This document shows, in pieces, positions 1 through 64,000 of a DNA stretch of 64,000 nt. How positions within the stretch are numbered: position 1 is the stretch's first letter; every line of letters starts with the position of its first letter. Location: assembly GCA_965204565.1 (NCBI GenBank), contig CBDBEU010000003.1, positions 591,305-655,304 on the forward strand, read 5' to 3'. Source of the DNA: Hyphomicrobiales bacterium. GTDB taxonomy: Bacteria > Pseudomonadota > Alphaproteobacteria > Rhizobiales > TMED25. A model generated the notes under the pieces. The model saw only the letters and a program-made list of their open reading frames with translations. It had not been told where the DNA came from and made no database searches. The position numbers were made by a program, and so were the translations under genes.

Positions 1-839
1 CTGGCAAGGGTTTCCGCCCCAATGTGCTGGACCTTGGCGGCTGGAAGTGGCTGGCGCTCGGCTACAACCTCACCTACCTCCTGGTGGCGGTAGTGATGCC
101 TATTATGTGTCTTGCGGTGGTCAGTCTGCATCCGGTGTGGACGGCGGAAATTCTGCCCGACCAGATGAGCTTCAACAATTATGAGAAGACGCTGTTCTTC
201 TGGCGGCCAGATTCGATCAAGGCCGCGACCAACGGCATCTTCAACTCATTCTTCCTTGCCTTTACCGGTGCGACCATCGCCATGATCCTGGCGCTGGTGG
301 TGAGTTACATGATCCATCGCACCAAGGGATTCGGCTCAAGGCTGCTTGATTTCCTGTGCGTTGTGCCGATCGGATTTCCCGGCATCGTGCTGGCTATGGG
401 TGTGCTCGTGACCTACATCCAAACACCGATCTACGCGACATTGTGGATCCTGCTTCTGGGCTATATCACCCGCTTCTTTCCCTATGGTCAGCGCAATATT
501 TCCTCCGTGATGCTGGCGATTTCCGAAGAGCTCGAGCAGTCCTCGCGCATGGCCGGCGCCTCGTGGTTCACCACGTTGCGGCGGATTACCATCCCGCTCC
601 TGAAACCCGGCATTTTCGCCGGCTGGGTGCTGCTGTTCATCATCTTCCTGCGTGAGCTGTCGATTTCGATCATTCTGTATACCACCGGCACCGAAACGCT
701 TTCGGTGGGCGTCTACTATCTCGCCAATTTCGAGAACGAGCCGCTGACTTCTGCGCTGTCGATGGCCCAGACACTGGTGCTATTGGTGTGCATCTATGTC
801 TTCCGCCGGTTGGCGGGCCGCGAGGCATTGACGGCATGA
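1..839 (+). CDS. ABC transporter permease, C-terminal portion (gene runs off the 5' edge of the window)
   Basis: The frame is open from the window edge (track ORF 24..839). The protein is polytopic and hydrophobic, with an EAA-type cytoplasmic loop (SSRMAGASWFTTLRRITIPLLKPG) as in iron/polyamine-type permeases. Its stop overlaps the next start (ATGA at 836-839). Confidence 0.8.
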   Translation, partial: GKGFRPNVLDLGGWKWLALGYNLTYLLVAVVMPIMCLAVVSLHPVWTAEILPDQMSFNNYEKTLFFWRPDSIKAATNGIFNSFFLAFTGATIAMILALVVSYMIHRTKGFGSRLLDFLCVVPIGFPGIVLAMGVLVTYIQTPIYATLWILLLGYITRFFPYGQRNISSVMLAISEELEQSSRMAGASWFTTLRRITIPLLKPGIFAGWVLLFIIFLRELSISIILYTTGTETLSVGVYYLANFENEPLTSALSMAQTLVLLVCIYVFRRLAGREALTA

Positions 840-1954
840 GTTCGGGCAGGGTGGCAGAGCCCTATCTGGAAGTCGAACATCTGATCAAGCTGTTCGGCGA
901 GGACCGGGCGGTGGATGATGTGTCATTTTCTATCCCCGAAGGCTCGTTCCTGACGCTGCTGGGGCCGTCCGGCTGCGGCAAGACCACAACCTTGATGAGC
1001 ATTGCGGGTTTGCATCATATCGATGGCGGCCGCATTTCAGTTGGCGGGCTGACTTATACCGCGCCGGTGGACGGCGTGTTCCTGGCGCCGGAAAAACGCG
1101 ACATCGGCATGGTGTTCCAGTCCTATGCCATTTGGCCACATATGACGGTGGCGCAAAATGTCGCCTATCCACTAGAAATCCGCAAAATCAACAGGGGTGA
1201 GATCGACGACCGGGTGGCTGAGGTTCTGGCATTGGTTGGCCTTGGCGATTTCGCCGACAAGCTCGCGACCCAGCTTTCTGGCGGCCAGCAGCAGCGCGCA
1301 TCGCTCGCGCGGGCCATTGTCGCGCATCCGCGCCTGCTCCTGTTCGACGAGCCTTTGTCCAATCTGGATCTCAAATTGCGCGAGCAGATGCGTGTCGAGC
1401 TCAAGCGCATACAAAACGAGGTCGGCATTACCTCGGTCTATGTCACCCATGACCAGGCTGAAGCATTGGTGATGAGTGACGAGATCATCGTGATGAGCAA
1501 AGGAACGATCGAGCAGCGCGGCAATCCGCTCGATATCTACACCAACCCGGTCAATCGCTATGTCTCCAATTTCATTGGCATCGCCAATCTGCTCGATTGC
1601 CGGGTGCTGGAGGCCAATGGCGTTGATGGCGTTCATCACGGAACCGTCGAGGTGGCGCAGGATGGCGAGGCCATCCAACTCAAATGCCGGCTTGGCCCGG
1701 GCGTTGAGGCAGGCGCGCCGGCGGTTTTGTCAGTGCGACCTGAAAATGTGCGCGTTGCGCGCTCCAAGGATAGCGGCGACGCGCTTCCGGGCGAGATATC
1801 CAGCGTGGTGTTTCTGGGCAATTGCGTCGATGCGCAGGTCGATTGGGGCGGCTTTGAATGGAAGGTGCTGGGCCATCCGCGCGACGGGTTGAAGGTGGGC
1901 GAGAAGGTCTATCTCAATCTTGATCCTGATCACACGCTGGCGGTGCGGCCATGA
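836..1954 (+). CDS. ABC transporter ATP-binding protein (PotA/FbpC-like with TOBE-type C-terminus)
   Basis: Walker A GPSGCGKTT, signature LSGGQQQR and Walker B LLLFDEPLS are present. ATG 836 is in the frame of track ORF 788..1954 and overlaps the permease stop. Confidence 0.9.
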   Translation: MSSGRVAEPYLEVEHLIKLFGEDRAVDDVSFSIPEGSFLTLLGPSGCGKTTTLMSIAGLHHIDGGRISVGGLTYTAPVDGVFLAPEKRDIGMVFQSYAIWPHMTVAQNVAYPLEIRKINRGEIDDRVAEVLALVGLGDFADKLATQLSGGQQQRASLARAIVAHPRLLLFDEPLSNLDLKLREQMRVELKRIQNEVGITSVYVTHDQAEALVMSDEIIVMSKGTIEQRGNPLDIYTNPVNRYVSNFIGIANLLDCRVLEANGVDGVHHGTVEVAQDGEAIQLKCRLGPGVEAGAPAVLSVRPENVRVARSKDSGDALPGEISSVVFLGNCVDAQVDWGGFEWKVLGHPRDGLKVGEKVYLNLDPDHTLAVRP

Positions 1955-3069
1955 GTGATACAAATAAGCCGATGGTCGAGATCGAGCATCTGAACAAGGT
2001 TTTCGGTCATGAGGTCGCTGTCGATGATTTCAATCTGGATGTTGCCGAGGGCGAGTTCGTCACGCTGCTGGGCCCGTCCGGCTGCGGCAAGACGACGACA
2101 CTGCGCTGCATTGCCGGGCTTGAGCGGCCTGATGGCGGCGAGATCCGCATTGGCGGCGACACAGTCACCGCGCCCGCACGCGGCATTCATCTGACGCCCG
2201 AGCAGCGCAATATCGGCATGGTGTTTCAAAGTTATGCGGTGTGGCCGCATATGACGGTGTTCGACAATGTCGCCTATGGGCTGAGGGTGCGGCGCACGCC
2301 GGCAGCCGAGCGTCAGACGCGCACCATGCGCGCGCTCGAGCTTGTCGGGCTGACCGATTTTGCTGATCGCTATGCGACCAAACTGTCGGGCGGCCAGCGC
2401 CAGCGTGTCGCCCTTGCGCGCGCCATCGTCTATGAGCCGCGCGTGATTTTGTTCGATGAGCCACTCTCCAATCTCGATGCCAAGCTGCGCGAGCAGATGC
2501 GCGATGAACTGGTGCGCCTGCAAAGGGAGGTTGGCATCACCTCGGTCTATGTCACTCATGACCAGGGCGAAGCGTTGGTGATGAGCGACCGGGTGGTGGT
2601 AATGGACAAGGCGGTGATCCAACAGATCGGCAGTCCACAGGAGATCTATGCCGAACCGGCCAACAGTTTCGTCGCCGGGTTTATCGGCGTTGCCAATCTG
2701 ATAAAGGGCACGCTCAAATCGCGCCGCGGCCAGGTCTGCGAGGTCGAGATTGCGGCCAAGGATGGTAGCGACGGCTTTGCGCTGAAGGCTCATGGCGGTG
2801 AAGGAGTTGCGGCTGGTGATGGGCTCTTTATCAACATTCGCCCTGAGGATTTCAGCCTGCATCTGGACGAGCCGAAATCGGCAAGCGGCGGCAATGTGTT
2901 GAAAGGCGCGGTGATCGATACGGTGTATCTGGGCAATTGCGCCGAGGCGCGTATCAGCGTCGGCGGCCATGAGGTCGGAATTCAGATCGATCATTATGAA
3001 AATCTGGTATCGGGTCAGCCGGTCTATCTGACATTCAAGCCGGATCACGCGCTTTGTCTGGCGAGCTGA
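1951..3069 (+). CDS. ABC transporter ATP-binding protein (second, paralogous ATPase of the same system)
   Basis: Walker A GPSGCGKTT, signature LSGGQRQR and Walker B ILFDEPLS are present. The start overlaps the upstream stop (ATGA at 1951). Confidence 0.9.
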   Translation: MSDTNKPMVEIEHLNKVFGHEVAVDDFNLDVAEGEFVTLLGPSGCGKTTTLRCIAGLERPDGGEIRIGGDTVTAPARGIHLTPEQRNIGMVFQSYAVWPHMTVFDNVAYGLRVRRTPAAERQTRTMRALELVGLTDFADRYATKLSGGQRQRVALARAIVYEPRVILFDEPLSNLDAKLREQMRDELVRLQREVGITSVYVTHDQGEALVMSDRVVVMDKAVIQQIGSPQEIYAEPANSFVAGFIGVANLIKGTLKSRRGQVCEVEIAAKDGSDGFALKAHGGEGVAAGDGLFINIRPEDFSLHLDEPKSASGGNVLKGAVIDTVYLGNCAEARISVGGHEVGIQIDHYENLVSGQPVYLTFKPDHALCLAS

Positions 3070-3285
3070 ATTCTCACGGTGATTGATACGGCCGGGTCGA
3101 CCTCGGCCATGAGCGGCGCGGCACAGTCAGGCTCTGTTGCGCCCCGATCAGTTCCATGTTGAGCAAGCGTGAGCGCACCGGCCATCTGACTCAAATCGCC
3201 TCGATGACGGCGTTCAGCATCGGTATCATGGTGCAAAAGGGACTGACCGCTTGGCGAATGGTCAACTATGAAAAGTGCCTGATAG

Positions 3286-3525
3286 ATGAACTATGAAAAC
3301 AAGGAGACGCCTATGCAGACTGCAAGGCTATTGGAAGGCGCTCGGAGCAAACTTGTTGAGGCAGTAACGCGCAACCGCCTAATCCACGTGAACCGGAATG
3401 CAAAACGTTCCAACACGCTAAATGTCATCAACGAGAGGTCTGACGATGTTTTCTCGATCTTGCGGGCTAACGTGCGACGAATGAAGTTTGCAGCCACGGC
3501 GAGCGAAGAGGATGAAGAAGACTAG
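3286..3525 (+). pseudogene. N-terminal stub (~70-79 codons) of a DUF4011-type SF1 (Upf1-like) helicase, cut off where an IS3 element begins
   Basis: SKLVEAVTRNRLIHVNRNAKRSNTLNVINERSDDVFSILRANVRRMKF resembles the conserved N-terminal DUF4011 motif (rNrLlnf...l.i.de.pd.vf..L). A good SD (aaggaga) precedes ATG 3313. Such proteins normally exceed 1000 aa, and here the frame ends at the IS3 junction. The assignment is from memory of the family, not a search. Confidence 0.45.
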
Positions 3526-4516
3526 GATGACGAAGAGAAAGAACCATTCGCTCGGGTTCAAGGCCCCCGGGTTCAAGGCCAGGGTCGCGCTTGAGGCGAT
3601 CCGCGAAGAGATGACGCCGGCGGAGTTGTCGAAGAAATACGGCGGGCATGCGACCCGGATCAGCACGTGGAAGCGGGCAGCGATCCGGAACACGGCGTCT
3701 GCGTTTGACCGGCGGGGGCCGATCCGGCCCCGGCCGGTACGGTCGAGATCGAGAAGTTGCATTCCAGGATCGGGCGGCTTGTTGTCGAGCGGGATTTTTT
3801 GGCCGATGCCCCGGTTCGGCGGCTCGGGACGCGAGGCAAAAAACGGTGAGCAAGGATCATAAGCCGGGCGTTCGGCGTCAGTGCGCATTGCTGACGCTGA
3901 CGCGGTCCAGGCTCTACGATCAGCCGAAGGGCGAGAGCGCAGAGAACCTGCGCTTCATGGCAATCATGGACAGGCAGTTCCCGGAAACGCCGTGGTACGG
4001 ATCGCGGTAAATGGCGTGGCATATGCAGCGGCGGAGCCGCATGTGCGGACGGCACCGTGTCCGCCGCCGCCGTCTGATGCGCCTCATGCGGCCGGTCCCG
4101 ATCTACCGGGAGCTCGACAGCAGCAAGAAACACCTGCATCCCGATGCGTGGGGGCTTCCTGTATCTGGTGGCAATCATGGACCGGTACAGTCGAAAGGTT
4201 CCGGCTTGGCGACTGTCGAACACGCTCGAGGCAGACTTCCGTGCGGATGCCTTGAAGGAAGCGCCGGCCGGGCACGGCAAGCCGGAAATCTTCACCACAC
4301 TCACCCGGGCGCAGATCCTGATCGAGCAGTGGTCGCGCTTCTACAACACCGAGAGGCCACACTCGTCGCCGGGCTCTCGCCCACCTGTACCTGAAACGGT
4401 ATTGCCGAGGAGGCCGACAATCCCATACGCTGCAACCCTGATCGGCCGAACCGTCGATTGGACCTTGGTCGGATTCCAACTCAAAGGCCGGGTCACCAAA
4501 AAGACCCCGCACAGGT
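3500..4516 (+). mobile_element. IS3-family element, degenerate (orfA-like start at 3527; orfB pieces in at least 3 frames)
   Basis: orfA-like MTKRKNHSLGFK...ELSKKYGGHATRISTWKR. orfB pieces are KDHKPGVRRQCALLTLTRSRLY, FLYLVAIMDRYSRKVPAWRLSNTLEADF and FYNTERPHSSPGSRPPVPE. The left boundary is approximate. The right boundary is set by where similarity to the second copy of the 3' end (56188..56310) stops. Confidence 0.8.
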
Positions 4517-4715: not shown

Positions 4716-4791
<76 letters not shown>

Positions 4792-4849
4792 GGTATTTCA
4801 AGGAGTTGGAGAAAAATGTTCGGCTGACCACCCTGGAACGCCCCGCTAA

Positions 4850-5132
4850 AGCAACCAGAAAGCAACAACCCGTCCGGTCCGCCGGCAGACGTGTAGCCGT
4901 CGACCACGAATTTGCCCATCGAGGTGAGCGCGCCGCCGGCATAGCCGAACAGGGGTTCCAGAATGGCGCCTTCGTTCGGCAGGGCGATGGCATAACCGCG
5001 CCAGTCGAACGTGCATTCGAGCGTATCGCTTTCCTGTCCGCTTTCGTCCCTGATTCCGCACGAAATGAGCCTGGAATAGAAAATGCCGTTGACCGGCGAA
5101 CCGCCTGCCAGCACCCTGATGACCGGACGCAT
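4850..5132 (-). pseudogene. Phage late control protein D (P2 gpD-like), N-terminal ~95 codons only
   Basis: MRPVIRVLAGG...IRDESGQESDTLECTFDWRG...GAILEPLFGYAGG...MGKFVVDGYTSAGGP matches the gpD N-terminal pattern. The rest of track ORF 4692..5132 is non-homologous read-through into the tRNA. Confidence 0.7.
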
Positions 5133-5135
5133 GGA

Positions 5136-5378
5136 TCAGCCCCATAGCCGGTTCGGGCCGATCGGTGTTTCCGTCTCGGCATCCGGCATGACAATTTCGG
5201 TCCCGACCGGCACGTTGTGACTCACTTCCGCCAGGCCCGGATTGAGATCGAAGATTTGCTCGACATAACCGGAGAGCCGGGCGGCGCGGTTCGGGTCGTC
5301 GGGATAGAGCTTCTGGCGAAACCTCCAGGCGATTTCCTCGATGCCCATTTCGGTGCCGGTGACCTTGACCGTCGCCAT
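5136..5378 (-). CDS. Phage tail protein X (P2 gpX-like)
   Basis: 80 aa. NPGLAEVSHNVPVGTEIVMPD...NRLW matches the gpX pattern, and the gene lies between gpD and gpU/T remnants as in P2-like tails. Confidence 0.75.
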   Translation of the reverse strand: MATVKVTGTEMGIEEIAWRFRQKLYPDDPNRAARLSGYVEQIFDLNPGLAEVSHNVPVGTEIVMPDAETETPIGPNRLWG

Positions 5379-6910
5379 CAGAACAGCCCTCCAAATGCAC
5401 CGCCCCCATAGGGGGAGACGGTGACCGGGAATTCCAACTGCTTTCCCGCGCCGCTCCGGTCGATGTGAAATTGCGTGTCGGAAACCATCTCAATGATGAC
5501 CAGACCGAAGACACGCCCCGGTGTCGCGCCCGAAAACCCGACCATCATCACAGGCGATCTGAGCTTGTTTCCGGCCCGCTCCGCTCCAGCCTCGAGTGCA
5601 TCGCCGACACGACCGGCATCGGATACGAAATCGGTGAACGCCTCGCCGATCTCGCGCACCGCTTTTTCTTCACCGATCGGTCGCGGCGTCGGCAATGCCG
5701 CACGCTCCCGGAAGGCGGCAAGGGCCGTTCCGAGTTCGCGACCGGCTGCGCTGAGCGACACGGACTGAACAGCCTGCGTCACTCGATCAAACCATTGCGG
5801 GTTCGGTTCGGTCATTCCGGACCCGTCCGATTTCGGCGCAGCGGGCTCTGGCGCAGGTGTCTCGGACGGTGCCGGTTGTTCCGGCTCATCGACAAAGCCG
5901 GCCTTTTCGGCGAGCCATTTCATCCAGCTCGGCTGCTCCGGCCAATCGATATCGAATGAGATCAGCTCGCCAAGGGCATCAAACCTTGTACTGAACCAGT
6001 CTGTCAGGTCAGACCAGGCTTCTTCCATGCCGTCAATAATGAGCTCGACGATCAAAGTGCCAAGAGTGAACCGATATGTGATTGCCGACCGGATCGCGTT
6101 CCCGAGCCACTTGCCGATGCGCCGGCCGGCCGCTTCGACCTCGCCCTTCTCGGCATCGCTGGGCTGCTCCTGCGTGAACAGGTCGGAAAAGAAATTGTCA
6201 ACGGCGTCCCTGGCCCTGGCAAGCCGGGCATCAACGCCGGAGAAGTCGAACCAGCGGTCGAACGCGGCCATCGCCGCCTCGGCGTCTATTCCGATTATCC
6301 CGGCGATCTCGTCCACCCAGCCACGAACATCCGAGACAAGGCTTTCCCACTTGCCTGAAATCCATTCGATATCGGGTGCAAAAGCATCGTAAAGGCCGTC
6401 TCCAAAACCCTTCATGAACGCTTTGAAACGCTCCCGGTATTTCCAGAGCAGGAAGACAGCCGCTGCGATCAGGACGATGGTGAGAACGACCGGCCATCCG
6501 GCAGCTGCGATCGCCGACAAGGCCGCAACGGCAGCGGTGCGCAGACCGGTAAACAGCGTCGCCAGAGCCGTTCCCCTGCTGAAGGTCGCAAGCATGTGCA
6601 ATCCCGCCAGTGCGCCCTTGATCCGCCCGGGTGCGATCGATGCCAGAAACCAGCCGGCAGAACGGGCCAGACGACCGAATATCCGGCCGGCGCCCGCAAG
6701 CATCCTGAGTGGCCCGGCCAATAGCGCCACATTGCGACCGGCGCGGCCAAAGCGCATGAACAGGCCAAGAAACCTGAACAGTCGCAGGCCGAACGCTGCC
6801 CAGAGGAAACCGGCCACGCGCGATGCAATGCCGAAGGCCAGCATTGCGGCTGCGCTCTGCACGAGCACGCTTGCCGGTTCCGGGTTGGCCTGTGCCCAGG
6901 CGGCAACAAC
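5378..6910 (-). pseudogene. Phage tail tape-measure protein, 5'-truncated and fused in frame to the last ~50 codons of a gpU-like tail protein
   Basis: The protein is Ala/Gly-rich with TM-like tape-measure features (…AAVAALSAIAAAGWPVVLTIVLIAAAVFLLW…). Its C-terminus, GRVFGLVIIEMVSDTQFHIDRSGAGKQLEFPVTV, looks like a gpU C-terminus. The frame is closed by a stop at ~6911, where unrelated sequence begins. Confidence 0.65.
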
Positions 6911-6911
6911 T

Positions 6912-7074
6912 CACACTGCTGATCGGCAAGCACTTCGGCAATATTCGGATGCCGGTTGAAAAATATCTGCCCAAACCGGTCATCGATCCGCTCACGATCC
7001 GCATGAGCGAACTTATGGAGCAGCGCGGCAAAACCAAAGGCAAAGAGCCGGGTGAAGATGGCGATGTGTTATGA
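6912..7074 (+). pseudogene. C-terminal ~53-codon remnant of the gene that originally preceded the HerA-like ATPase
   Basis: The frame reads ...TLLIGKHFGNIRMPVEKYLPKPVIDPLTIRMSELMEQRGKTKGKEPGEDGDVL and ends in an ATGA overlap with the ATPase start at 7071. Upstream it abuts the truncated tape-measure gene on the other strand. Family unknown. Confidence 0.35.
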
Positions 7075-9252
7075 CCACGACCGTCGAACGCATCGGCACG
7101 CTTTCAGTCGGCCGGGTTGATGCCGTCACCGCCGAAGAGTTGTGCATCGCGCTTTTCAATGAAACTCCACAGGCGACCGCGTTGAATACCGGCACGCCTA
7201 CCGGTTTTCCGCGCGTCAATGCCTATGTACTGATACAGAACGAGATCGGCGCGGTCGTCGCGGTAATCAAGGAAATCTGCATCGTTCGTGCTAAACCGGC
7301 TCCCGGAAAGCACGACGATGCCCTTGTGGACCTTCCATATCCTGCCCGGACTATTTTGGCCATTCCGTTCGGCACACTGCTGCTTGAGGGAAATGACGGC
7401 GACGGCCAGCCACGCTATGCACTGGAACGCGGCATTCCGGTGCTGCCTTCGGTTGGCGATCCGGTTCTCCTTCCAACGGCAATGCAACTTCGTTCCATCG
7501 TCGAAGCCAAAACCGACGACCGCTTGATCCGGATTGGCTCTGCTCCTTTTGCCGACAACGCTCATGTATGTGTACCCCCGGACAAGCTGTTTGGCCGGCA
7601 TCTTGCCGTCCTTGGCAATACCGGCAGCGGGAAGTCCTGCTCCGTTGCCGGTGTTGTCCGCTGGTCGCTTGAAGAAAGTGCGGCGGCGAAGGCCTCGCAA
7701 GCGACAACGCAGAAAGGTGAAAAAGCCCAGCCGACCAATGCCAGGTTCATCATTCTAGACCCCAACGGCGAGTATTCACAGGCCTTTGAGGATGGCGCGT
7801 TGCCGGTCAGGCGCTTTTCGGTTGGCGGTAGCGACGGCGCGATTCCACTCACAGTGCCGGGCTGGCTTTGGAATGGACAGGAGTGGCGGCTTTCACGTCC
7901 GCGCAACCCGGAGTTCAGCGCCCCGTATTGCTCGGAGCACTGCGGCGGTTGCGCAATGCAGATGCGACCGCCCTGACGAAAAAAGCACAGGCGATCAATC
8001 GCTATATCAATTATGTCCGGCGGATTGAGCAGAACTATGCGGACCTGCCTCAAAGCGTTACCGGCTTTCCGCAAAACAAAGACTTCGGGTCACTGCTAGA
8101 GAGCCTGATTGAAATGAGTAAATGCGACGAGAAAGAGCTTGCCACCTGCGGCAATGAGACAGCCGATCTCGTGACCGCGATTGCGGCAATACGCGATCCG
8201 ATCGAGCAGGTGCGTACCAAGCGCCATTGGGTCAAGGGGACCGGATACAACGATTTCCAGTCTGGATTGACCTTCAAGCTGTTCTAAAGGCACTCCGCAC
8301 GATCACCGAAGCCTTTCCAATCGCTGCAACTCACGGCGAGATCAGCGAAGATGCACCGGTGCGGTTTGATGTCGTGGCACTTCCTGACTGTATCCGTAAT
8401 GTTGCTATGGAAACGGGCGGGCGGGCGGTTAATAACGTCGAACCGCTTATCAACCGCGTCTAGGTCATGCTTGGTGATGCCGGGCTCCGTCCGGTCATCG
8501 ATACCGAAGGTGCAGCTTCGTTCAGCGAGTGGCTGGCAGGCCTGCTTGGTCCCGGTGAAGGCGCTCCCGAACCGCTTGCTATTCTTGATCTCTCACTCGT
8601 GCCATCGGATGTTGTACATATTGCCGTTGCCGTGATTTCGCGACTGATATTCGAGGCACTGCAACGCTATATCAAGGAAACAAACGAAGCCCTTCCGACT
8701 GTGCTCGTGCTGGAGGAAGCGCACAGCTTCGTGCGCAAGAATGCCGATATTGGTGCGAGCGAACAGGCCGCTGATCTATGCCGCCAGACCTTTGAGCGAA
8801 TAGCAAGGGAAGGGCGGAAATTCGGTCTTGGGCTGGTTCTGGCATCGCAACGCCCGTCCGAACTCTCGCCGACAGTCTTGGCGCAGTGTAACTCGTTCCT
8901 GCTCCACCGCATCGTCAACGATGTCGATCAGAATCTTGTCCGCCGTCTTGTTCCCGACGCTTTGGGCGGGCTTCTCGACGAGCTTCCCATGATTCCTTCG
9001 CAGCAGGAAATCCCTCTCGGCCGGGCAGCCACCATACCCGTTCCCGTTCGCATCCGCGACCTGCAAAAGCCGCAGCGCCCGCGTTCGGATGATCCGAGTT
9101 TCTGGCACACATGGCTTGGCTGCAAAGGCGCTCCGCCAAACTGGACGCAAGTGGTCAAGACATGGGAAAAACCAGACGAAGAGGTCCACCAAGCGCAGAC
9201 CACGGAAAGTATCGCAGGTGACGATATCGACCCAGAACCGAACGAGGCATAG
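7071..9252 (+). pseudogene. HerA-like (DUF87) ATPase, inactivated by two frameshifts and one in-frame stop
   Basis: An N-terminal barrel-like region is followed by Walker A VLGNTGSGKS (~7615-7645), ARFIILDPNGEY and Walker B-like VLVLEEAH (~8700), then REGRKFGLGLVLASQRPSEL and NSFLLHRIVN. The reading frame changes near 7886 and near 8260-8280, and there is an in-frame TAG at 8461-8463. Confidence 0.8.
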
Positions 9253-12246: not shown

Positions 12247-12247
12247 G

Positions 12248-51900: not shown

Positions 51901-51948
51901 CCTCCCCCGGCAAAGCCAGATCCGAGATTTTCCTTGTCCGCGGACACT

Positions 51949-53279: not shown

Positions 53280-53281
53280 GG

Positions 53282-56160: not shown

Positions 56161-56187
56161 AACCGTCACAGTTCTAGGGGGCTAAGA

Positions 56188-56310: not shown

Positions 56311-56492
56311 CTCCATAATCCCCTGACTCCAAAGCCAGGGAAGAGGTCAGAACATGGGTCGCTTCTCAGTGGAAATTTATCACCCTCCCGGGTCAACTCT
56401 CAGTGAAAATCAACATTGGCTCGTCTTCGACAATCAGGACGAGAGGTTCGGGGACAATGGACATTGGTTATCCTGTATCCGCGGCTGATTGA

Positions 56493-57215
56493 CTATTCGG
56501 CGGCATCGGGTCCGATATAGGTGGTGCTGGTGGTATCGCTCTTCGGGCGCTCTTCATCGAAGATCTCGCCGCTGATCATATAGTGCACCTGTTCGGCCAC
56601 ACTCGTCGTGTGGTCTCCCATCCGTTCAACATTCTTGGCAATGAACAGAAGGTGCATGCAGAGCGTAATGGCGCGCGGGTCTTCCATCATGTAGGTGAGC
56701 AATTCGCGGAACAGCGTGTTGTGCAACTGGTCGACTTCGGCATCACGCAATCGCACATCTTCTGCCATATCGACATTGCGGTTCACATAGGCATCCAGCA
56801 CATCCTTGACCATGCTTTGCACCATGGCACCCATGCGTTTGATGGTCGCAGCGGACGAACCGATCGGCTGTGCTTTGGCCAGAACGCTGCTGCGCTTGGC
56901 AATATTCTTCGCGTAATCGCCGATACGCTCCATGTTCAGCGCAATTTTCGGTGCCACAACGACAGCGCGCAAATCCTGGGCCATGGGCTGGCGCTGCGCC
57001 AGAATGCCGACCACTGCCAAATCAATCTCGGCCTCCAGTACATCGATACGATTGTCGTTGGCGATGACCGCTTCAGCCAGTGTAACGTCGCGTCGGTTCA
57101 AGGCAGTGGCGGCATCGGCAATCTGTTTTTCGACCAATCCACCCATCTCGATAACAAGGGCTTCGATGCGGTTGAGATCTTCGTCGAATGCCGTGACGAT
57201 ATGCTGCTTGTCCAT
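56493..57215 (-). CDS. phoU: Phosphate signalling complex protein PhoU
   Basis: 240 aa from ATG 57215 (SD aggaga upstream): MDKQHIVTAFDEDLNRIEALV…, with two PhoU repeats. It lies directly downstream of pstB. Confidence 0.9.
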   Translation of the reverse strand: MDKQHIVTAFDEDLNRIEALVIEMGGLVEKQIADAATALNRRDVTLAEAVIANDNRIDVLEAEIDLAVVGILAQRQPMAQDLRAVVVAPKIALNMERIGDYAKNIAKRSSVLAKAQPIGSSAATIKRMGAMVQSMVKDVLDAYVNRNVDMAEDVRLRDAEVDQLHNTLFRELLTYMMEDPRAITLCMHLLFIAKNVERMGDHTTSVAEQVHYMISGEIFDEERPKSDTTSTTYIGPDAAE

Positions 57216-57225
57216 TTTCCGTCTC

Positions 57226-58083
57226 CTAGCCAAACCGGCCGGTGATGTAATCCTGGGTGCGTTCGTCATCCGGGTTGGTGAAGATATGCTTGGTCTCCCC
57301 TTCCTCGACCAACACGCCCAGATGGAAGAACGCGGTGCGCTGGGAGACCCTGGCGGCCTGCTGCATTGAGTGGGTGATGATGATGATCGTGAAGTTTGTC
57401 CTCAACTCGTCGATCAACTCTTCGATGCGTGCGGTTGCGATCGGATCGAGTGCCGAGCAGGGCTCATCCATGAGGATCACTTCCGGGCTGACGGCGATGG
57501 CGCGCGCTATGCACAAGCGCTGTTGCTGCCCCCCGGAAAGCCCGGTTCCGGGCTCGTTCAGCCGGTCCTTGACCTCGTTCAAAAGGCCGGCCCTGGAAAG
57601 GCTGTTGATCACGATCAACTCAAGCTCTGCCTTGTTCCTGGCCAGCCCGTGGATACGCGGCCCATAGGCAACATTCTCGAAGATCGATTTGGGAAATGGA
57701 TTGGGTTTTTGAAACACCATGCCCACTCGGGCACGCAACTCGACCACATCGAGCGAGGGGTCGTATATATCGCGGCCGCCAAGCAGGAAACTGCCGCTCA
57801 CGCGCGTGCCTTCAATCGTATCGTTCATGCGGTTGAAGCAACGCAATATGGTCGATTTACCGCATCCCGACGGACCGATAAACGATGTCACCGCGCAGGC
57901 GTCGATATCGATCGCGATATCGAACAGCGCCTGTTTTTCACCGTAGAAAACACACGCGTCCCTGACCTTGATCATCGCTGTGTGTCTACCGGGCTGATCT
58001 CTCGCCTGATCCGGGGCCTGATCGTGTGACCCGGCCTGGACGAGCGGTACGGCGGCGCTGCCGGCAGCCGAATTGTCCTTCAT
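57226..58083 (-). CDS. pstB: Phosphate ABC transporter ATP-binding protein PstB
   Basis: Walker [10 protein letters not shown], signature LSGGQQQR and Walker [12 protein letters not shown] are present, with the C-terminus …ITGRFG. The likely start is ATG 58083 (MKDNSAAG…), which leaves an unusually long N-terminal extension before the conserved core. Confidence 0.95.
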
Positions 58084-58102
58084 ATTAGCGACTCCCAACG
58101 CA

Positions 58103-59392
58103 TCACCATTTTCGCTCAAACCGGCGGCGCAAAATGATCGCAATCAAATTCATCAGCACCAAAAATCCGAGCAGGACGAGGATACCAGCCGAGGTGCGTG
58201 AGACGAAGCCACGCTCGGGGCTGTCGGCCCAGATGAAGATCTGTGTCGGCAGCGCCGTTGAAGCGTCGAGTAGCCCCCCCGGAGGACTGGTTACGAATGC
58301 ATTCATACCTATCAGCAACAGCGGCGCTGATTCTCCGAGCGCCTGCGCAAGCCCGATGATGGTGCCGGTCAGAATTCCCGGAAGCGCCAGCGGCAGCACA
58401 TGATGCAGGATCATCTGGTGTCTGGAAGCGCCCATGCCAAGCGCCGCCTCTCGGATCGACAGCGGCACCGCCTTCAGTGACGCCCTGGTGACGATGATGA
58501 TCGTCGGCAGCGTCATCAGCGACAGCACCATGCCGCCTACCAGGGGCGCGGAGCGCGGCAGGCCGAAGAAATTGAGAAACACCGCAAGGCCCAACAGGCC
58601 GAACACAATCGAGGGCACCGCCGCCAGATTGTTGATATTGACCTCAAGAATATCGCTGGCGCGGCTTTTAGGCGCGAATTCCTCAAAATAGACCGCCGCC
58701 GCAATGCCGACCGGGAAGCTGATCAGAAAACACACCAGGAGCGCATAGAACGAGCCGACAATCGCGCCCGACAGCCCGGCAAGTTCTGGAAACCGGCTGT
58801 CGGCATTGAACAACAGCCCCCAATTGAACGGCTTTGATATCCGGCCTCGTTCGGCAAGGGTTTGGAACCAGACGATTTCCTGATCGGAGATGCGCCGCTG
58901 GTCTTCCGGCAAATTGGCATCGATAGTGCCCTTATTGAGCTGATCGAACGGATCGGACACCGGCACCGACAAGGTGAGCGTGCCGCCAATGACACCTGGA
59001 TCAGCGAGCACCGCATCACGCAGCATGAACTGGGCATTATTGGTCGCGATCTTTGTCAGCGCGCGCAGCTCGCGTTTCGATTGAACGTCGGGAAACTCAA
59101 CCTGAAACGCCTCTGAAATGATCGCCCGGTAATTGCCGCGTGTGGGTTCATCGGCATTGACATGCTCGGCGGAAATCAAGAAATTGAGATTCACTTCGGT
59201 TTGCACGAAGGCCGAGTAGCCGGTGATGACCAGCGAGGTCATCAGAACTGCAAGCAGACCGATCGCGGTCGAGATCGCGGCAAGTCCGTAAAACTGCAAG
59301 CGCTTGTCGGCCAAATGGCGGCGTTTGCGGCGCGTGGCCGCCCCCGGCGTTGACCAGTCGATCCGGGATGTCGGCATGATCTCAGTCATCAC
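58103..59392 (-). CDS. pstA: Phosphate ABC transporter permease PstA
   Basis: 429 aa with a long periplasmic loop after TM1 and the EAA loop …[27 protein letters not shown]…. Confidence 0.9.
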
Positions 59393-59402
59393 TGCTTACC
59401 CC

Positions 59403-60779
59403 CTACTCATACTGTTCACGGTATTTGTGCACCGTGCGAAGCGCGATCACGTTCAAGATCAGCGTTACCAGGAACAGCACCAGACCAAGCGCAAAAGCAG
59501 CCAGCGTCTTGGGGCTGTCGAATTCGGTATCGCCGATCAGTAGCGTCACGATCTGCACCGTCACCGTGGTCACGCCGTCCAGCGGATTGATGGTCAGTGT
59601 GGCAATCAGTCCGGCGGCCATCACCACGATCATGGTCTCGCCAATAGCGCGGCTCACCGCCAACAAAATGCCGCCGACAATACCCGGAAGTGCGGACGGC
59701 AGCATCACCTTGACCATGGTCTCGCCCCTGGTCGCGCCCAGTGCCAGGGAGCCATCGCGCATCGCCTGAGGCACCGCATTCAACGCATCGTCGGAAAGTG
59801 ATGAGATGAATGGAATGATCATGATGCCCATCACCGCACCAGCGGCGAAGGCACTGTTGGGCGATGTGGCAAGGCCCATGGTCAGGCCGAATTCACGCAC
59901 CGCCGGCGCCACCGTCAGCACAGCAAAGAAGCCGTAAACCACCGTCGGGATGCCGGCCAGGATCTCCAGCACCGGCTTGACGATGTTGCGAAACCGGTCA
60001 TTGGAATATTCTACCAGATAGATTGCGGTGAAGATGCCAATCGGCGTGGCGCAAACCATCGCAATGAACGCGATCAGTACCGTGCCGGCAAACACCGGAA
60101 AGGCGCCGAATGCGCCCTGCCCCGCCACCTGATCGGGCCTTAACGCAATCTGCGGCTCCCAGTTGAGGCCGAACAGGAACTCGGTGATCGGCACCATTTC
60201 GAAGAACCGCCAAGCCTCGAATACCAGCGAGGCAATGATGCCCAATGTGGTGAGTACCGCGACCACCGAGCAGAACACCATCAGCCAGGTGATCACCCTC
60301 TCGAAGCGATTGCGCGCGCGAAAGACGGCCGTGAGTCTGGCGCGGGTCACTGCAAGGGTGACGATCATCAGTCCCATCACCATGACCAGCATCGCAAAGC
60401 GCGCGATCGCCGACCAGTTCTGATAGCGCTCGGCCGCTTGCAGCACTTCCGTGCTCGGTTCGGAAAATACGCGTCCGGCAGCTACGTTCTTGATCTCAGA
60501 CACGATCAGCGTGATGCGCGATGCATCGGTGCCGTCAATCAGCGCCGCGGGCAGCGAGGACACCAGCAGCCGGTCGATCACCGCGCCCTGCAAGAACAGC
60601 CACAACAGCACCAGAATGAAGGAGGGGATGCCGACCCAGACCGCGACAAACAGCCCGTGATGGGCTGGCAGGGAATGCGGCTTGACCGGGCCGCCAGCAT
60701 ATTTGCGCCCTGCCGACCGGCCGACATGGAAGGCCAGCAGCGACATCGCGATGATTGCTAGGAACGCATATCCAGCCAA
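59403..60779 (-). CDS. pstC: Phosphate ABC transporter permease PstC
   Basis: 458 aa with the EAA loop …MRDGSLALGATRGETMVKVMLPSALPG…. The order pstC-pstA-pstB-phoU is conserved. Confidence 0.9.
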   Translation of the reverse strand: MAGYAFLAIIAMSLLAFHVGRSAGRKYAGGPVKPHSLPAHHGLFVAVWVGIPSFILVLLWLFLQGAVIDRLLVSSLPAALIDGTDASRITLIVSEIKNVAAGRVFSEPSTEVLQAAERYQNWSAIARFAMLVMVMGLMIVTLAVTRARLTAVFRARNRFERVITWLMVFCSVVAVLTTLGIIASLVFEAWRFFEMVPITEFLFGLNWEPQIALRPDQVAGQGAFGAFPVFAGTVLIAFIAMVCATPIGIFTAIYLVEYSNDRFRNIVKPVLEILAGIPTVVYGFFAVLTVAPAVREFGLTMGLATSPNSAFAAGAVMGIMIIPFISSLSDDALNAVPQAMRDGSLALGATRGETMVKVMLPSALPGIVGGILLAVSRAIGETMIVVMAAGLIATLTINPLDGVTTVTVQIVTLLIGDTEFDSPKTLAAFALGLVLFLVTLILNVIALRTVHKYREQYE

Positions 60780-60887: not shown

Positions 60888-61095
60888 TCAAGACGGTTGG
60901 CTCATCGCCTGGCAGCCGGTTGCCGCCTTGCGTGTGCTCTCGCGCTTGTCGCCTGAAAGAGGAATGAGGCCGCGCTCGGACAGATAGCCGCCATCACCAA
61001 AGGAATCCTCGGAGACATACTCGCCGATGAACTCATCGAGCCCCGGAATGACGCCGATATGGGCGCATTTGATGTAGAAGAACAGCGGCCGCGAC
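60888..61095 (-). pseudogene. pstS: Phosphate-binding protein PstS, C-terminal ~69 codons only
   Basis: …RPLFFYIKCAHIGVIPGLDEFIGEYVSEDSFGDGGYLSERGLIPL… matches the PstS-family C-terminus. Upstream sequence is replaced by an IS1380 fragment from ~61096. Confidence 0.7.
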
Positions 61096-61496
61096 ACCGG
61101 ATCGAGCGCCGGACGGTCCGCGTCATTCACATCATCATATCCGTCCGATCGCCCGAAGACCGACCGCCGCAAAAGCCCGACCACGGAATGCAGACGGTTG
61201 TGGACGGTTCGCGTATCTCCGAGAGGACCGCCGGCAATATCGTGCAATCCCGGGGTCTCGTCCAACTCCCGTAACGGCAACGGGCCACCGTCGGAACCGA
61301 TCTTCGAGCCATGGGATTCCAGCCGCACCCGCCAACCGCCCCCGACTGTCGAAACCGAGCCTGATATCACCCGTTTCGCCTGCACCCTGCGGGTGATCCG
61401 TGATCCGCACCCTACAGCCCGTACAACATGCTGAAATATAACATATTACTGGCTGTCGGAGGCGCGAAAATGTCACGTTACCTAGGGAATGTGGGA
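61096..61496 (-). mobile_element. IS1380-family element, 5' ~400 bp (copy 6)
   Basis: Matches the 5' parts of copies 2 and 4, including the terminus CACGTTACCTAGGGAATGTGGG ending at 61496. Confidence 0.85.
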
Positions 61497-61585
61497 TGAA
61501 GCAGCAGAACGGTCGGACCGCTGCCTGCCTCCAGATATGCGGTCCGCATACCGTTGTGCTCAATGAACTGCTCCGATAGGTTCAT
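61497..61585 (-). pseudogene. Alpha/beta hydrolase, N-terminal ~30 codons only
   Basis: MNLSEQFIEHNGMRTAYLEAGSGPTVLLLH is the typical start of AB-hydrolase-1 proteins (…G.G..lvLlHG). It is cut at the IS1380 terminus. Confidence 0.4.
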
Positions 61586-61796: not shown

Positions 61797-62141
61797 ATGA
61801 GCCGAGAACGCGTCAATGCGATCTGCCAATCGTTCCCCGGAGCGGAAATCTCCGACCCGTGGGGCGGTGGGTATGGTGCCTGGAAGGTTGGTGGCAAGAT
61901 GTTCGCGTGCATCGATGCGCAAACTCCAAGCGTTTCCGTTAAGACCGACAGCATTGAGACGGCCCAGATGCTGATCGGCGCTGGCGTTGGCAGGAAGGCG
62001 GCCTATTTTCATCGTTCTTGGGTAAACCTGCACTGGGGCACTGCCGAGGATGAATTGCGCTACCGGTTGGCGGCGTCGTACCGATTGGTGCGCTCACGCC
62101 TGCCCGGGAAGCTTAAATCCCAGCTTGATCCATTCGAGTAA
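61797..62141 (+). CDS. MmcQ/YjbR family DNA-binding protein
   Basis: 114 aa. …ICQSFPGAEISDPWGGGYGAWKVGGKMFACI…SVKTD… is the YjbR pattern. Confidence 0.8.
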   Translation: MSRERVNAICQSFPGAEISDPWGGGYGAWKVGGKMFACIDAQTPSVSVKTDSIETAQMLIGAGVGRKAAYFHRSWVNLHWGTAEDELRYRLAASYRLVRSRLPGKLKSQLDPFE

Positions 62142-62181
62142 CAAGCATCCACCAACGCTCGGCAATGATCGGGAGACAACG

Positions 62182-63225
62182 ATGAGATTTGGCTTATTCG
62201 GCAGTGCGCAGACCGGCGACAGTAATCTTGGAGATGGAACCGCCCAAGGGTTTCATGACTACATAGACTTCAATGTCGAGGCAGAGCGGCTCGGCTATTT
62301 CAGCACGTTCCTCGTGGAACACCACTTCACCGGCTGGTCGCAGGTCTCTGCCACGTTGAACCTGCTCACCTTTCTTGCTGCGCGGACCAGCAAGCTCCGT
62401 CTCGGCACGGCGGTCATGGTTTTGCCCTGGCACAATCCGGTACTGTTGGCAGAGCAAGCCGCAACACTTGATGCCCTATCCGGCGGAAGGCTCGATTTCG
62501 GTATCGGCAAGGGCTACCGGCATAGCGAGTTCAAAGGCTTTGCCATTCCGGCAGCACAAGCAGAAGACCGGTTCGAAGAAGCGCTTGATATCATTCTGAG
62601 GTCGTGGATAACGGCGGAGCGCTTTTCGGTTCGAGGCAAGTTCTGGAGCTTTGAAGACATCATTGTCGAACCTGCCCCGGCGCAGAAGCCTTATCCTGCG
62701 ATCTGGATGGCGGCCGGCAGTGAGACATCGATCCGCAAGGTTGCCGCCCGCAGCTTCAATCTGCTGCTCGATCAGTTCGCCGAGGCCGAGCTGACGGGCA
62801 AGCGGATCGAAACGTTCAAAGCAGCATGCAAGGAACAGGGACGCGCGTTCCATCCCCTGAATGTCGCTGTCGCGCGCGACCTTTATATCGCCGATGATGA
62901 AGCGGAAAAATCTGCTGCCATCGGCCGCCTCAATGCCGTTCGCCAGCGCATGGTCGAAGTCGCGCGCGCGCCCGATCAATCAAGCGGCTCGCACATTCTG
63001 TCCTACGCCACCTCGGGAGCTCCCAGCGCCGCGAACGCGCTGATTGGAACGACCGGTGAGGTGCATGAAATGCTCCAGGCACTTCAGGCGGCCGGCGCGG
63101 AGTATGTGATAGTCAACATCATCGGCGGATCGCGCCCGACGCTGCGGCGATTTGCTGATGAGATTGCGCCCGGATTTGGCCACAACCAAACGCCCGCTGC
63201 GGACGATGGCCGGCTGCACGCCTGA
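62182..63225 (+). CDS. LLM-class (luciferase-like) flavin-dependent oxidoreductase
   Basis: 347 aa from ATG 62182 (SD gggag at 62171-75): MRFGLFGS…FLVEHHF…LRLGTAVMVLPWHNPVLLAEQAATLDALSGGRLDFGIGKGY…. Confidence 0.9.
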   Translation: MRFGLFGSAQTGDSNLGDGTAQGFHDYIDFNVEAERLGYFSTFLVEHHFTGWSQVSATLNLLTFLAARTSKLRLGTAVMVLPWHNPVLLAEQAATLDALSGGRLDFGIGKGYRHSEFKGFAIPAAQAEDRFEEALDIILRSWITAERFSVRGKFWSFEDIIVEPAPAQKPYPAIWMAAGSETSIRKVAARSFNLLLDQFAEAELTGKRIETFKAACKEQGRAFHPLNVAVARDLYIADDEAEKSAAIGRLNAVRQRMVEVARAPDQSSGSHILSYATSGAPSAANALIGTTGEVHEMLQALQAAGAEYVIVNIIGGSRPTLRRFADEIAPGFGHNQTPAADDGRLHA

Positions 63226-63261
63226 TTTCGCGACGTCAATCGCCCGCATTGGGTTGCCGAT

Positions 63262-63819
63262 TCAACTGATCGCCGCCACACACTCGGCGAACTTCTCATC
63301 AGGTGAGTGGTCGTTCAACGTCTTTCTCTGCCGCTCATTGAGTTCCCGCGCCACAGCACAGGTCAGTGCCTTTGGGGAAGTACTGTCGCAGCAGCCGGTT
63401 GGTGTTCTCGTTGGTGCCGCGCTGCCGGGGGCTGTGGGGATCGCAGAAGCAAACCTCGAGGTCGGTCGCAAGCGTGAGACGCTTGTGGTCGGCAAGTTCC
63501 TTGCCCCGGTCCCGGGTGAGCGACCCGCGCAGTTCGCGCGGCAGGTGCTGAACCTGTCTGACGAGCGCGGTTACGACGCCGTCGGTTTTCTTGTCGGGGA
63601 CCTTGGCGAGGAGCACGTAACGGGACTGACGCTCGACCGGCGTTGCGATGTAACTGTTGCGAGAGCCGGCAGCCCCTCCCGGTGGCCGGACGTTCGCGGA
63701 TCGGGACCGCATCTTTGATCCAGCCGAGCCCGTCGCGCTTGAGACCGGCGTGCCGGGAGCGGCGGATCGCGCGTGTTGCCCGCAGACGGGCCGGCAATAT
63801 GCCTGTAGACATTTCACCT
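63262..63819 (-). pseudogene. IS30-family transposase, C-terminal half, frameshifted, cut by IS5 copy B
   Basis: …VERQSRYVLLAKVPDKKTDGVV…SLTRDRGKELADHKRL…VCFCDPHSPRQRGTNENTNRLLRQYFPKGTDL and …ELNERQRKTLN… form the IS30 DDE region in 3 frames. Confidence 0.8.
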
Positions 63820-64000
63820 GAGGGCCTCTATCAATCCCGCTTGTTCGTCCGATTTTCTGTGATTTTGGCGCGGCGTGGTCATCTGAACTGGTTTTGTGTT
63901 TCGGATGCAGCGACGTGACCCGCTTTCAGAGCGTTCCTGGTTGCTATTGAACGGACACGTCCCGTGATCAGGCGGTGACGCTGCCTCCGAGTTGGACCAG
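63820..64000 (-). mobile_element. IS5-family element (type 3), copy B, inverted relative to copy A; continues beyond the window
   Basis: 63820-64000 is the reverse complement, with a few mismatches, of ~55420-55606, covering the last ~30 nt of the transposase gene plus the 155-bp tail. The terminus TGAGGGCCTCTATCAATC begins around 63819-63820. Confidence 0.85.

Follow-up and report, generated by a model that had tools for sequence, protein, structure and literature searches.

Insertion sequence remnants and inactivated genes on both sides of a conserved core block in an uncultured Hyphomicrobiales lineage

Introduction

We analysed a stretch of 64,000 nucleotides (hereafter the window) of a Hyphomicrobiales bacterium (NCBI GenBank assembly GCA_965204565.1, contig CBDBEU010000003.1, positions 591,305 to 655,304 of the forward strand; coordinates below count from the first letter of the window), in which remnants of insertion sequences (IS) and broken genes lie on both sides of an intact block of core genes. 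The IS burst is real, as is the gene inactivation, and both are confined to the lineage of the window. The phenomenon is a well-known type of genome decay, of which the window is a clear new example; it is no new kind of system. That the window lineage is passing through IS-driven genome erosion is a reading to which we give slightly better than an even chance.

Results

The window was compared with two relatives. The first is a strain represented by ENA contig ERZ25068762 (23,241 bp, 3x coverage, loci L082 and L087), which is collinear with window positions 9665-28852. The second is the sister metagenome-assembled genome (MAG) GCA_013001785.1 (Illumina, ~95-96% nucleotide identity), which was compared at the three loci L081, L086 and L088. 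Insertion sequences were detected by self-BLAST, repeat finding, Pfam on selected reading-frame segments, NCBIfam and tblastn, the latter using an intact IS1380 transposase of Phaeobacter plasmid origin as query. A codon-usage log-odds frame score discriminated poorly at 60% GC and served only to pre-select segments for Pfam.

In the window, IS-derived DNA amounts to ~14.3 kb (22%) in 19 pieces, i.e. six of IS1380 (copies A to F), four of IS5 (two subtypes), four of IS3, three of IS630 and two of IS30, one of the last tentative. The initial annotation, made from the letters alone, had counted ~15 kb in at least 18 pieces from the same five families without any intact transposase, and our census agrees with it. 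All five families were matched by NCBIfam models (transpos_IS1380, transpos_IS5_4, IS5_3, transpos_IS3, transpos_IS630, transpos_IS30), and an uninterrupted full-length transposase open reading frame (ORF) was found in none of the 19 pieces. The pieces are clustered, six of them within 10.7-15.7 kb.

The best preserved copy, IS1380 A (18309..19709, plus strand), covers residues 2-425 of 448 in tblastn, with one in-frame stop and the 3' end gone. It reaches 231 bits over positions 2-414 of 419 of transpos_IS1380 only when read across the stop, and it is 68% identical in amino acids to an annotated IS1380 transposase. The element ends read CCCA(C/T)ATTCCC... and ...GGGGAATGTCG, in keeping with the features of the IS1380 family. 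Copy B (29644..31147, minus strand) is near full length with a frameshift and two stops (tblastn), and it bounds the core block on the left as well as marking a rearrangement breakpoint; no target-site duplication was found at this copy, which fits a rearrangement and is weak evidence alone. Three copies are partial, all recognised by tblastn and self-BLAST: C (13906..14933, minus) retains only the frameshifted 3' part (residues 191-448 of 448, two frames), D (25838..26244, plus; common to the ENA strain) only the last ~400 bp (residues 395-448), and E (61080..61497, minus), at the breakpoint in pstS, the 5' 418 bp, frameshifted (residues 1-102, two frames). Piece F (53851..54278, both strands) belongs to an older subfamily and is internally inverted, with residues 263-325 on the plus and 337-421 on the minus strand (tblastn); its divergence from copies A-C is 17-21%.

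The remaining families are equally defective. IS5 remnant #1 (10700..11660, minus), also present in the ENA strain, needs at least three frames (transpos_IS5_4, 133 bits in three stretches; Pfam DUF772), and an IS5_3 or IS427-type remnant (14947..15700, minus) is spread over multiple frames (transpos_IS5_3, 108 bits, below the cut-off, two stretches; weak Pfam DUF4096). IS5 copy #2 (54335..55597, plus) carries a TAG at 54485 and reaches 143 bits against transpos_IS5_4 only if joined across this stop. Its end recurs at 63826-64000, where the end of a further IS5 copy (63826..64000, minus; inverted repeat of 55418-55597, 93-95% identity) runs off the window edge. The transposase of copy #2 also shows, at 55300-55400, an in-frame tandem duplication of six codons (RKHMMG / RKHVMG) within the conserved C-terminal motif.

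IS3 remnant #1 (3480..4515, plus) has orfA/orfB in several frames and an internal deletion (transpos_IS3, 79 bits in two stretches against a cut-off of 160), and its 3' end recurs at 56190-56308. Remnant #2 (12298..13367, minus) has orfB in three frames (transpos_IS3, 151 bits, below the cut-off, four stretches), stub #3 (13403..13747, minus) is an HTH_21 piece only (Pfam HTH_21, NCBIfam), and remnant #4 (55598..56416, minus) matches positions 9-173 of 369 of transpos_IS3; its outer end cuts phoB at ~10 codons and its inner part is itself cut by IS5 #2. IS630 is represented by a C-terminal stub (11890..12255, minus; transpos_IS630 positions 244-299 of 299) and by two longer copies. The first (22079..22649, plus) is truncated at its 5' end and marks the end point of a window-specific 2.75-kb deletion; the second (47824..48830, plus; Pfam DDE_3, transpos_IS630 in four stretches) is frameshifted, begins at the stop codon of a class III alcohol dehydrogenase (ADH) gene and closes off the core block on the right, its 5' extent having been set from the alignment to L082. 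An IS30 C-terminal fragment (63338..63825, minus) matches transpos_IS30 at positions 146-246 of 267 (E = 1.2e-35), and a possible IS30 N-terminal stub (20362..20580, plus) was read by eye from the translation.

Between IS1380 B and the IS630 copy, which occupy its edges exactly, lies the core block (31125..47828, 16.7 kb) with genes for DUF218/YdcF, FtsX, FtsE, DUF3426, DUF4175 (885 aa), LysA, ArgH, TlpA, Hbd, EtfA, EtfB, a rhomboid protein, a PduO-type ATR, HIG1 and the class III ADH. An uninterrupted run of genes at 31.1-47.8 kb with an 885-codon ORF had been proposed before, and it is indeed there. Some 15-16 genes are intact and full length relative to their homologs (Pfam, NCBIfam, alignments), and the sole lesion is a hypothetical gene at 41.07-41.92 kb, which had been taken for a pair of genes and is one frameshifted gene (41071..41924, minus; +1 at 41421, -2 at 41338). 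This gene is lineage-specific: in the sister MAG it is a single 252-aa gene (L081), while in the other families compared it is absent between hbd and tlpA. Broken and intact non-IS genes are distributed unequally between block and flanks (Fisher p = 0.0007), also if only strongly supported lesions are counted (Fisher p = 0.007).

The gene order of the core block is kept in Hyphomicrobiales and Aestuariivirgaceae loci, and the window thus represents chromosomal DNA of an uncultured Hyphomicrobiales lineage. The closest non-identical ArgH (98% identity) is that of GCA_013001785.1 itself, a Rhizobiales/Hyphomicrobiales bacterium. Beyond the sister MAG, ArgH identity is ~80% at best in the protein database and at most 71% among the matches listed for genome-contig loci.

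Over the window, about 20 non-IS genes had been considered inactivated. Some 12 non-IS genes are demonstrably broken: a HerA-like (DUF87) ATPase, a methyl-accepting chemotaxis protein (MCP), CpaD, CpaE, an ABC stub of a type I secretion system (T1SS), a radical SAM protein, one half of an EamA transporter, an amidohydrolase, a family-2 glycosyltransferase (GT2), a DUF1538 stub, a PstS stub and, inside the block, the hypothetical gene mentioned above. A further six to eight are only probably broken (cupin, CBS pair, P-II-like, CarS-like, DUF4011 stub, alpha/beta-hydrolase stub, prophage tail remnants). By a tally of the annotated parts, intact coding sequence makes up ~49% of the window.

The HerA-like pseudogene (7071..9249, plus) has frameshifts near 7880 and near 8265 and a CAG>TAG change at 8461; full-length homologs and an intact 724-aa paralog (P0158) align to it by tblastn in frames 3, 2 and 1. 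Of the MCP gene (19723..20342, minus) only the signalling domain is left (Pfam MCPsignal 6-89 of 172, continued in a second frame), and the fragment is called alike in the ENA strain. Tad pilus remnants follow (20584..22012, plus), where CpaD is truncated at the C-terminus (Pilus_CpaD 4-144 of 200) and the AAA_31 match of CpaE/TadZ spans the join of two frames. The T1SS permease/ATPase stub (22650..23084, minus) keeps ~100 of ~700 residues (NCBIfam type_I_sec_LssB 152-218 of 696, E = 4.6e-18), the radical SAM pseudogene (23575..25158, minus) lies in three frames with Pfam Radical_SAM 2-119 of 166 in the middle fragment and is fragmented in the ENA strain too, and the C-terminal half of the EamA-type transporter (25398..25837, minus; one weak Pfam EamA domain, E = 0.009) is cut by IS1380 D at the junction 25838. 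The Amidohydrolase_2 pseudogene (27605..28622, minus) combines a frameshift near 28090 with a CAG>TAG change at the complement of 28061-63, and the full Pfam Amidohydro_2 domain (1-289 of 289) is recovered only when two frames are joined.

To the right of the block, the GT2 pseudogene (50252..52151, plus) carries frameshifts and in-frame stops at 51180 and 51531 (TAG), and its Pfam matches fall into separate fragments (Glyco_tranf_2_3 3-108 of 230, Glyco_trans_2_3 94-153 of 198). A cluster of DUF1538, P-II-like and CBS-pair remnants (52538..53602, minus) retains the last ~83 positions of DUF1538 (129-210 of 211) and a CBS gene in two frames. The pstS stub (60891..61102, minus) consists of the last ~65 codons, corresponding to residues 258-322 of the 330-aa phosphate-binding protein 9jwy_A (E = 6.5e-14).

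One candidate may be deceptive. The bicupin ORF (28666..29652, minus; Cupin_2 twice) is open over 328 codons, and three mid-ORF frameshifts are probable, if weakly indicated: some 70 residues in its middle are nonsense rich in Arg and Pro, and the other two frames yield sensible sequence. Matches in the PDB cover residues 95-142 and 219-308 only. Annotation based on ORFs would score the gene as intact, but it is probably a pseudogene.

Four TAG codons (8461, complement of 28061-63, 51531, 54485) had been cited as substitution-type stops, and all four are where they were reported. A substitution is proven for two of them: the TAG at 8461 is CAG in the intact HerA paralog, P0158 having glutamine at this place, and the TAG at the complement of 28061-63 is CAG in the related strain (L082; CTG on the forward strand). 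Of the other two, the one at 51531 is in frame with GT2-like sequence on either side (by window translation), and the one at 54485 interrupts an otherwise continuous IS5 reading frame. Both nonsense codons that can be polarised are thus CAG>TAG, i.e. C>T transitions, and all four cited stops are TAG.

The ENA contig shares most of this damage. The graveyard of IS pieces, IS1380 copies A, C and D and IS630 are common to both assemblies, and so are the wrecks of the MCP, CpaD, CpaE, T1SS, radical SAM, EamA and amidohydrolase genes. The two assemblies are 1.0-1.4% apart in unique pseudogene DNA, 0.55% in the intact hydrolase gene and 0.96% in the intact Mo-hydroxylase gene, and neither gene carries an indel. 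At 22012-22079 the window lacks 2.75 kb that are kept in L082 (2660-5411) and hold fragments of cpaF (T2SSE) and tadB (T2SSF) and the 5' part of IS630; this loss is a recent deletion of already dead DNA. The ENA strain has a 46-bp deletion of its own, and there are about ten further small indels between the strains, none of them in intact genes. Decay therefore continues, as the window-specific TAG at 28061-63, the 2.75-kb deletion, the 46-bp deletion of the ENA strain and the small indels outside intact genes indicate.

Two further differences between the strains were observed. The IS pieces at 10.7-19.7 kb and 22.1-22.6 kb differ by 3.4-6.6%, as against the 1.0-1.4% of the adjoining unique pseudogene DNA; this excess may stem from ectopic gene conversion between the IS copies, or from a mixed consensus in the 3x ENA assembly. 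Moreover, positions 1-852 of L087 do not align upstream of 9665 and encode another HerA-like fragment, 41% identical to P0158, so that the two strains are structurally different to the left of the FkbM gene.

The sister MAG is free of this damage at all three loci that can be tested. L081 aligns to the core block at 95.6% nucleotide identity over 7 kb, with no indel in six core genes, for which the pooled dS is 0.113 and dN/dS is 0.11 (a small sample, and a value that stands without a free-living baseline). L088 aligns up to 31150, i.e. the end of IS1380 B, five codons before the DUF218 stop, and then continues into a plsC-like acyltransferase and a ribonucleotide reductase (RNR); in the window, the inverted repeat of IS1380 B stands beyond DUF218, and neither a plsC-like nor an RNR gene occurs anywhere in the 64 kb. 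In L086, no fewer than 61 further codons of pstS follow beyond 61102, the point at which the window copy breaks off next to IS1380 E. At the two junctions tested, the DUF218 3' end and pstS, the sister MAG has no IS. Since the flanks missing at 31150 and 61102 are found nowhere in the window, simple insertion does not explain these junctions, which are breakpoints of a deletion or rearrangement. And since the sister MAG lacks the IS, has pstS uninterrupted at the breakpoint and keeps the ancestral neighbours, the IS burst and the breakpoints are specific to the window lineage. Relative to the less degraded sister MAG, IS-associated rearrangement or deletion is thereby seen at DUF218/IS1380 B and at pstS/IS1380 E, and the window differs from L082 by the 2.75-kb deletion.

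The copies themselves have diverged. IS1380 copies A-E are 4.3-7.9% apart (Jukes-Cantor 0.043-0.079), with two to eight indels per pair, many of them private, and the IS630 pair is ~4% apart. Near-identical copies, the hallmark of a recent burst, were not found in the window, where all copies are defective. Three IS1380 sites, the IS630 site and the whole graveyard at 10.7-15.7 kb predate the strain split (~1.2% neutral divergence). The IS expansion had been called recent, and this holds insofar as it is lineage-specific and postdates the split from the sister; it fails in the sense of active or near-identical copies, as all are dead, the IS1380 copies are 4.3-7.9% diverged, and the sites just named are older than the strain split.

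Discussion

These observations show the following course. After the split from the ~95-96% identical sister (dS 0.11), IS invaded the accessory DNA to the left and right of an ancestral, syntenic core block, with IS1380 as the main spreading element, accompanied by IS5, IS3, IS630 and IS30. IS copies then served as breakpoints of deletions or rearrangements that cut pstS and phoB and parted DUF218 from the plsC-like and RNR genes. The copies were inactivated before the ENA strain split off (~1.2%), and they have drifted 4-8% apart. Accessory genes no longer under selection, among them those for the Tad pilus, the chemoreceptor, the T1SS, catabolic enzymes, the defence ATPase and the glycosyltransferase, gathered frameshifts, C>T nonsense changes and deletions. 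This decay is ongoing, close strains differing by private stops, small indels and the 2.75-kb deletion. Selected genes, i.e. the core block, pstCAB-phoU, the Mo-hydroxylase subunit, the hydrolase and the ABC transporters, have stayed intact at a dN/dS of ~0.1.

Any explanation of the lesions as assembly or consensus errors, whether as homopolymer indels from long-read-only data or as chimeric joins across repeats, is highly improbable. It could draw on the length of the source contigs (826 kb and 2.18 Mb), with which the assembly is probably long-read, on four 1-bp differences from the 3x ENA contig that all fall within C runs, and on the larger difference between assemblies in IS regions than in unique DNA. 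However, not a single indel separates the window from the Illumina MAG in six core genes, or from the ENA contig in the dienelactone-hydrolase-type gene or the 2.3-kb Mo-hydroxylase gene, and short-read Logan contigs are 99.9-100% identical to it over 1.0-1.2 kb (pstB-phoU). The broken genes and IS junctions at 10.7-28.9 kb recur in an independent assembly, many of the lesions consist in truncations, indels of several bases or substitutions (CAG>TAG twice), and the 64 kb contain only 30 homopolymer runs of six or more bases. The view that no indel-prone assembly produced the lesions, already held in the initial annotation, was thus upheld by the independent ENA assembly and the Illumina sister MAG, and the artefact reading is largely refuted. 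The idea that the interruptions are functional, with TAG recoded or frameshifting programmed and the genes expressed, is more remote still and can practically be set aside. All four cited stops are TAG, and one programmed -1 frameshift is normal for the transposases of IS3 and of some IS5 and IS630 elements. But TAG is an ordinary terminator here, ending nine of 27 intact genes (including those for DUF4175, pstB, pstC and ADH), a usage that rules out TAG recoding; the broken genes carry several lesions each plus truncation, and the IS3 and IS5 pieces are truncated and change frame more often than a single programmed event allows.

A much more serious rival, quite plausible if short of an even chance, is that the window happens to cover local plasticity zones and IS graveyards of an otherwise ordinary free-living genome, where IS nest preferentially in dispensable DNA and in redundant duplicates, which then decay although neither the niche nor the genome-wide selection regime has changed. 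The genome would comprise at least 3.06 Mb if the contigs of 826,527, 2,182,813 and 53,645 bp form one assembly; GC is ~60% across the whole window without AT drift, and the dN/dS of the core genes (0.11) is not clearly elevated. The stretch at 3.5-10.7 kb looks like an integrated element, adjoining tRNA-Lys and prophage tail remnants and including the lowest-GC bin of the window (8-10 kb, 0.547), and the IS pieces are clustered. Some of the decaying genes also have other copies. The HerA-like gene is multi-copy (proteins P0156, P0157, P0158), with the apparently intact 724-aa paralog (92-97% amino acid identity to the window copy) on the very 826-kb contig of the window and a 397-aa form on the 53.6-kb contig, and it probably belongs to a repeated mobile or defence element. 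The genes pstC, pstA, pstB and phoU (56496..60779, minus) are intact in the window (Pfam; exact proteins in the collection), and identical PstA, PstB, PstC and PhoU proteins are found on the 2.18-Mb contig. Logan contigs L084 and L085 (SRR23871864/5) are 100% identical to the window up to 56417 and then continue, after phoU, into the receiver domain of phoB, whereas at 56416-56496 the window has only ~10 phoB codons before the IS3 terminal repeat. This could mean that the pst cluster of the window is a duplicate in decay, or else that the Logan reads stem from a co-occurring strain lacking the IS3. With a HerA paralog and a possible second pst copy, part of the decay may be the loss of redundant copies and not a loss of function. 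The lost functions had been summarised as surface, environmental, accessory and defence traits; this describes the classes of genes hit, some of which may be just such redundant copies.

Against the reading as local islands, three separate degraded zones lie on both sides of a conserved block within 64 kb, and all five IS families are dead. At the breakpoints, essential neighbours of the core block (plsC-like, RNR) have been lost from its side and the chromosomal operons tad and pst are cut short, and none of the three testable loci is damaged in the sister. That MAG, built from short reads, is broken into contigs of 2-7 kb, which would fit many repeats but could also reflect low coverage. Of the features of an island, tRNA adjacency, atypical GC and phage genes are seen at 3.5-10.7 kb, while 10.7-31 and 47.8-64 kb hold remnants of chromosomal operons instead. 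Several points weigh against erosion of the lineage as a whole, and they are largely those that favour local islands. The sample is 64 kb of one genome; the genome is large (assuming that the three contigs are one assembly) and its GC has not drifted, and together with the low core dN/dS this speaks against an advanced reductive state; HerA has an intact paralog on the contig of the window, and a second, identical set of pst genes may exist beside an uninterrupted phoB stretch.

With IS-driven erosion of the lineage retained as the preferred reading, the features of the known erosion syndrome that the window displays are a high IS load (22%, 19 pieces), many multi-lesion pseudogenes beside ~49% intact coding sequence, and IS-associated breakpoints relative to a less degraded relative. 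According to PMC7067036, Sodalis-type, recently host-restricted insect symbionts have almost 50% pseudogenes. Sodalis glossinidius and Candidatus Sodalis pierantonius (SOPE) resemble the window in genomes of several Mb, about half of the DNA being non-functional, the loss of accessory, surface and motility functions, and IS at breakpoints; they differ in being Gammaproteobacteria with known hosts, and the window represents 64 kb only. IS copies of SOPE are near-identical and very numerous, i.e. the product of a truly recent burst, unlike those of the window, which are 4-8% diverged and all dead. A closer parallel for a high but burnt-out IS load is Candidatus Amoebophilus asiaticus, where Schmitz-Esser and colleagues (2011, BMC Evol Biol) reportedly found IS to account for roughly one quarter of the genome and to show no sign of recent transposition. 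That species, however, belongs to the Bacteroidota, is an obligate amoeba symbiont and has many intact, transcribed transposases, as opposed to none in our 64-kb sample.

Mycobacterium leprae combines ~50% coding density and multiply-hit pseudogenes, as the window does, with few recognisable IS. In Burkholderia mallei as compared with B. pseudomallei, and in Shigella as compared with E. coli, IS-mediated deletions and rearrangements are seen against a less degraded relative, a relation paralleled by that of the window to GCA_013001785.1, here compared over three small sister contigs. M. leprae, B. mallei, Shigella and Bordetella pertussis are niche-restricted pathogens of known ecology with essentially identical IS copies, and in this they are unlike the window. 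The IS-rich symbiosis and genomic islands of free-living rhizobia (Bradyrhizobium, Mesorhizobium) are discrete, often tRNA-bounded and of atypical GC. They share with the window the order Hyphomicrobiales, nested IS fragments and many pseudogenes in dispensable regions of large genomes, but in the window degraded DNA flanks an ancestral core block left and right, and it breaks into chromosomal operons as well as into ancestral synteny.

The cause would be relaxed selection on accessory functions, or a smaller effective population size after a narrowing of the niche, and the rest of the genome would presumably be in the same state as the window. Carried to its full extent, this reading would describe an undescribed Hyphomicrobiales lineage in mid-transition: its genome of at least 3 Mb would be non-functional to about one half over its whole length and would carry extinct IS of several families, a less degraded sister would still be extant at ~95% average nucleotide identity, and an unrecognised host association would be possible. 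We regard this stronger version as plausible but less likely than not. If true, it would supply a natural before/after pair for the onset of genome erosion in Alphaproteobacteria.

The useful part of our results is a trio, comprising the window lineage, a strain at ~1.2% with shared as well as fresh lesions, and a sister at ~95-96% that is undamaged at three loci. If the pattern proves genome-wide, the trio would permit dating of the IS burst and estimates of the rate of pseudogene decay, the deletion bias and the order of function loss, all in a high-GC alphaproteobacterium whose genome has so far neither shrunk nor turned AT-rich. Our results also highlight a warning for annotation: several ORFs in the window are shadow or scrambled frames, of which the open but frame-scrambled cupin ORF is an example.

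Other genes of the window

At the left end of the window (1..3069, plus) stand ABC transporter genes, all intact, for two TOBE-domain ATPases and for a permease through which the window edge runs (Pfam BPD_transp_1, ABC_tran, TOBE_2); of these, the 372-aa ATPase has an exact counterpart in the protein collection. Behind them a single tRNA-Lys(CTT) (4716..4791, plus; ARAGORN, Rfam) is flanked by IS3 debris and by the prophage tail-gene remnants (4792..6910, minus), whose status is uncertain; the latter consist of a partial Pfam Phage_tail_X match (21-57 of 60) and an ORF of 496-510 aa that has no other family match in Pfam or NCBIfam. No other Rfam family was found in the 64-kb window. Between the HerA wreck and the FkbM gene, ~0.5 kb (9250-9770) is relatively AT-rich and holds no convincing ORF or family match. 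The FkbM-family methyltransferase gene itself (9798..10691, plus) is apparently intact (NCBIfam fkbM_fam 1-143 of 143) and is present in the protein collection.

The large subunit of a molybdopterin hydroxylase (15832..18111, minus; 759 aa; Pfam Ald_Xan_dh_C, MoCoBD_1, MoCoBD_2) is intact, as stated above for the comparison with the ENA strain. No gene for a 2Fe-2S (small) or FAD (medium) subunit is adjacent, and IS1380 A begins ~200 bp upstream; the protein is an orphan subunit, the operon partners of which may have been lost. The dienelactone-hydrolase-type alpha/beta hydrolase gene (26640..27551, plus; Pfam DLH) is likewise intact, with 99.45% identity to the ENA strain and a dS of 0.014. 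To the right of the core block, a solute-binding protein gene of the SBP_bac_3 family (48862..49692, minus; Pfam) is apparently intact, its 276-aa form being in the protein collection, and the same applies to a YjbR-family gene and a luciferase-like monooxygenase gene (61797..63225, plus; Pfam YjbR, Bac_luciferase 1-313 of 314), both with exact sequences in the collection. Other exact window proteins recur on the contigs of 2,182,813 bp and 53,645 bp.

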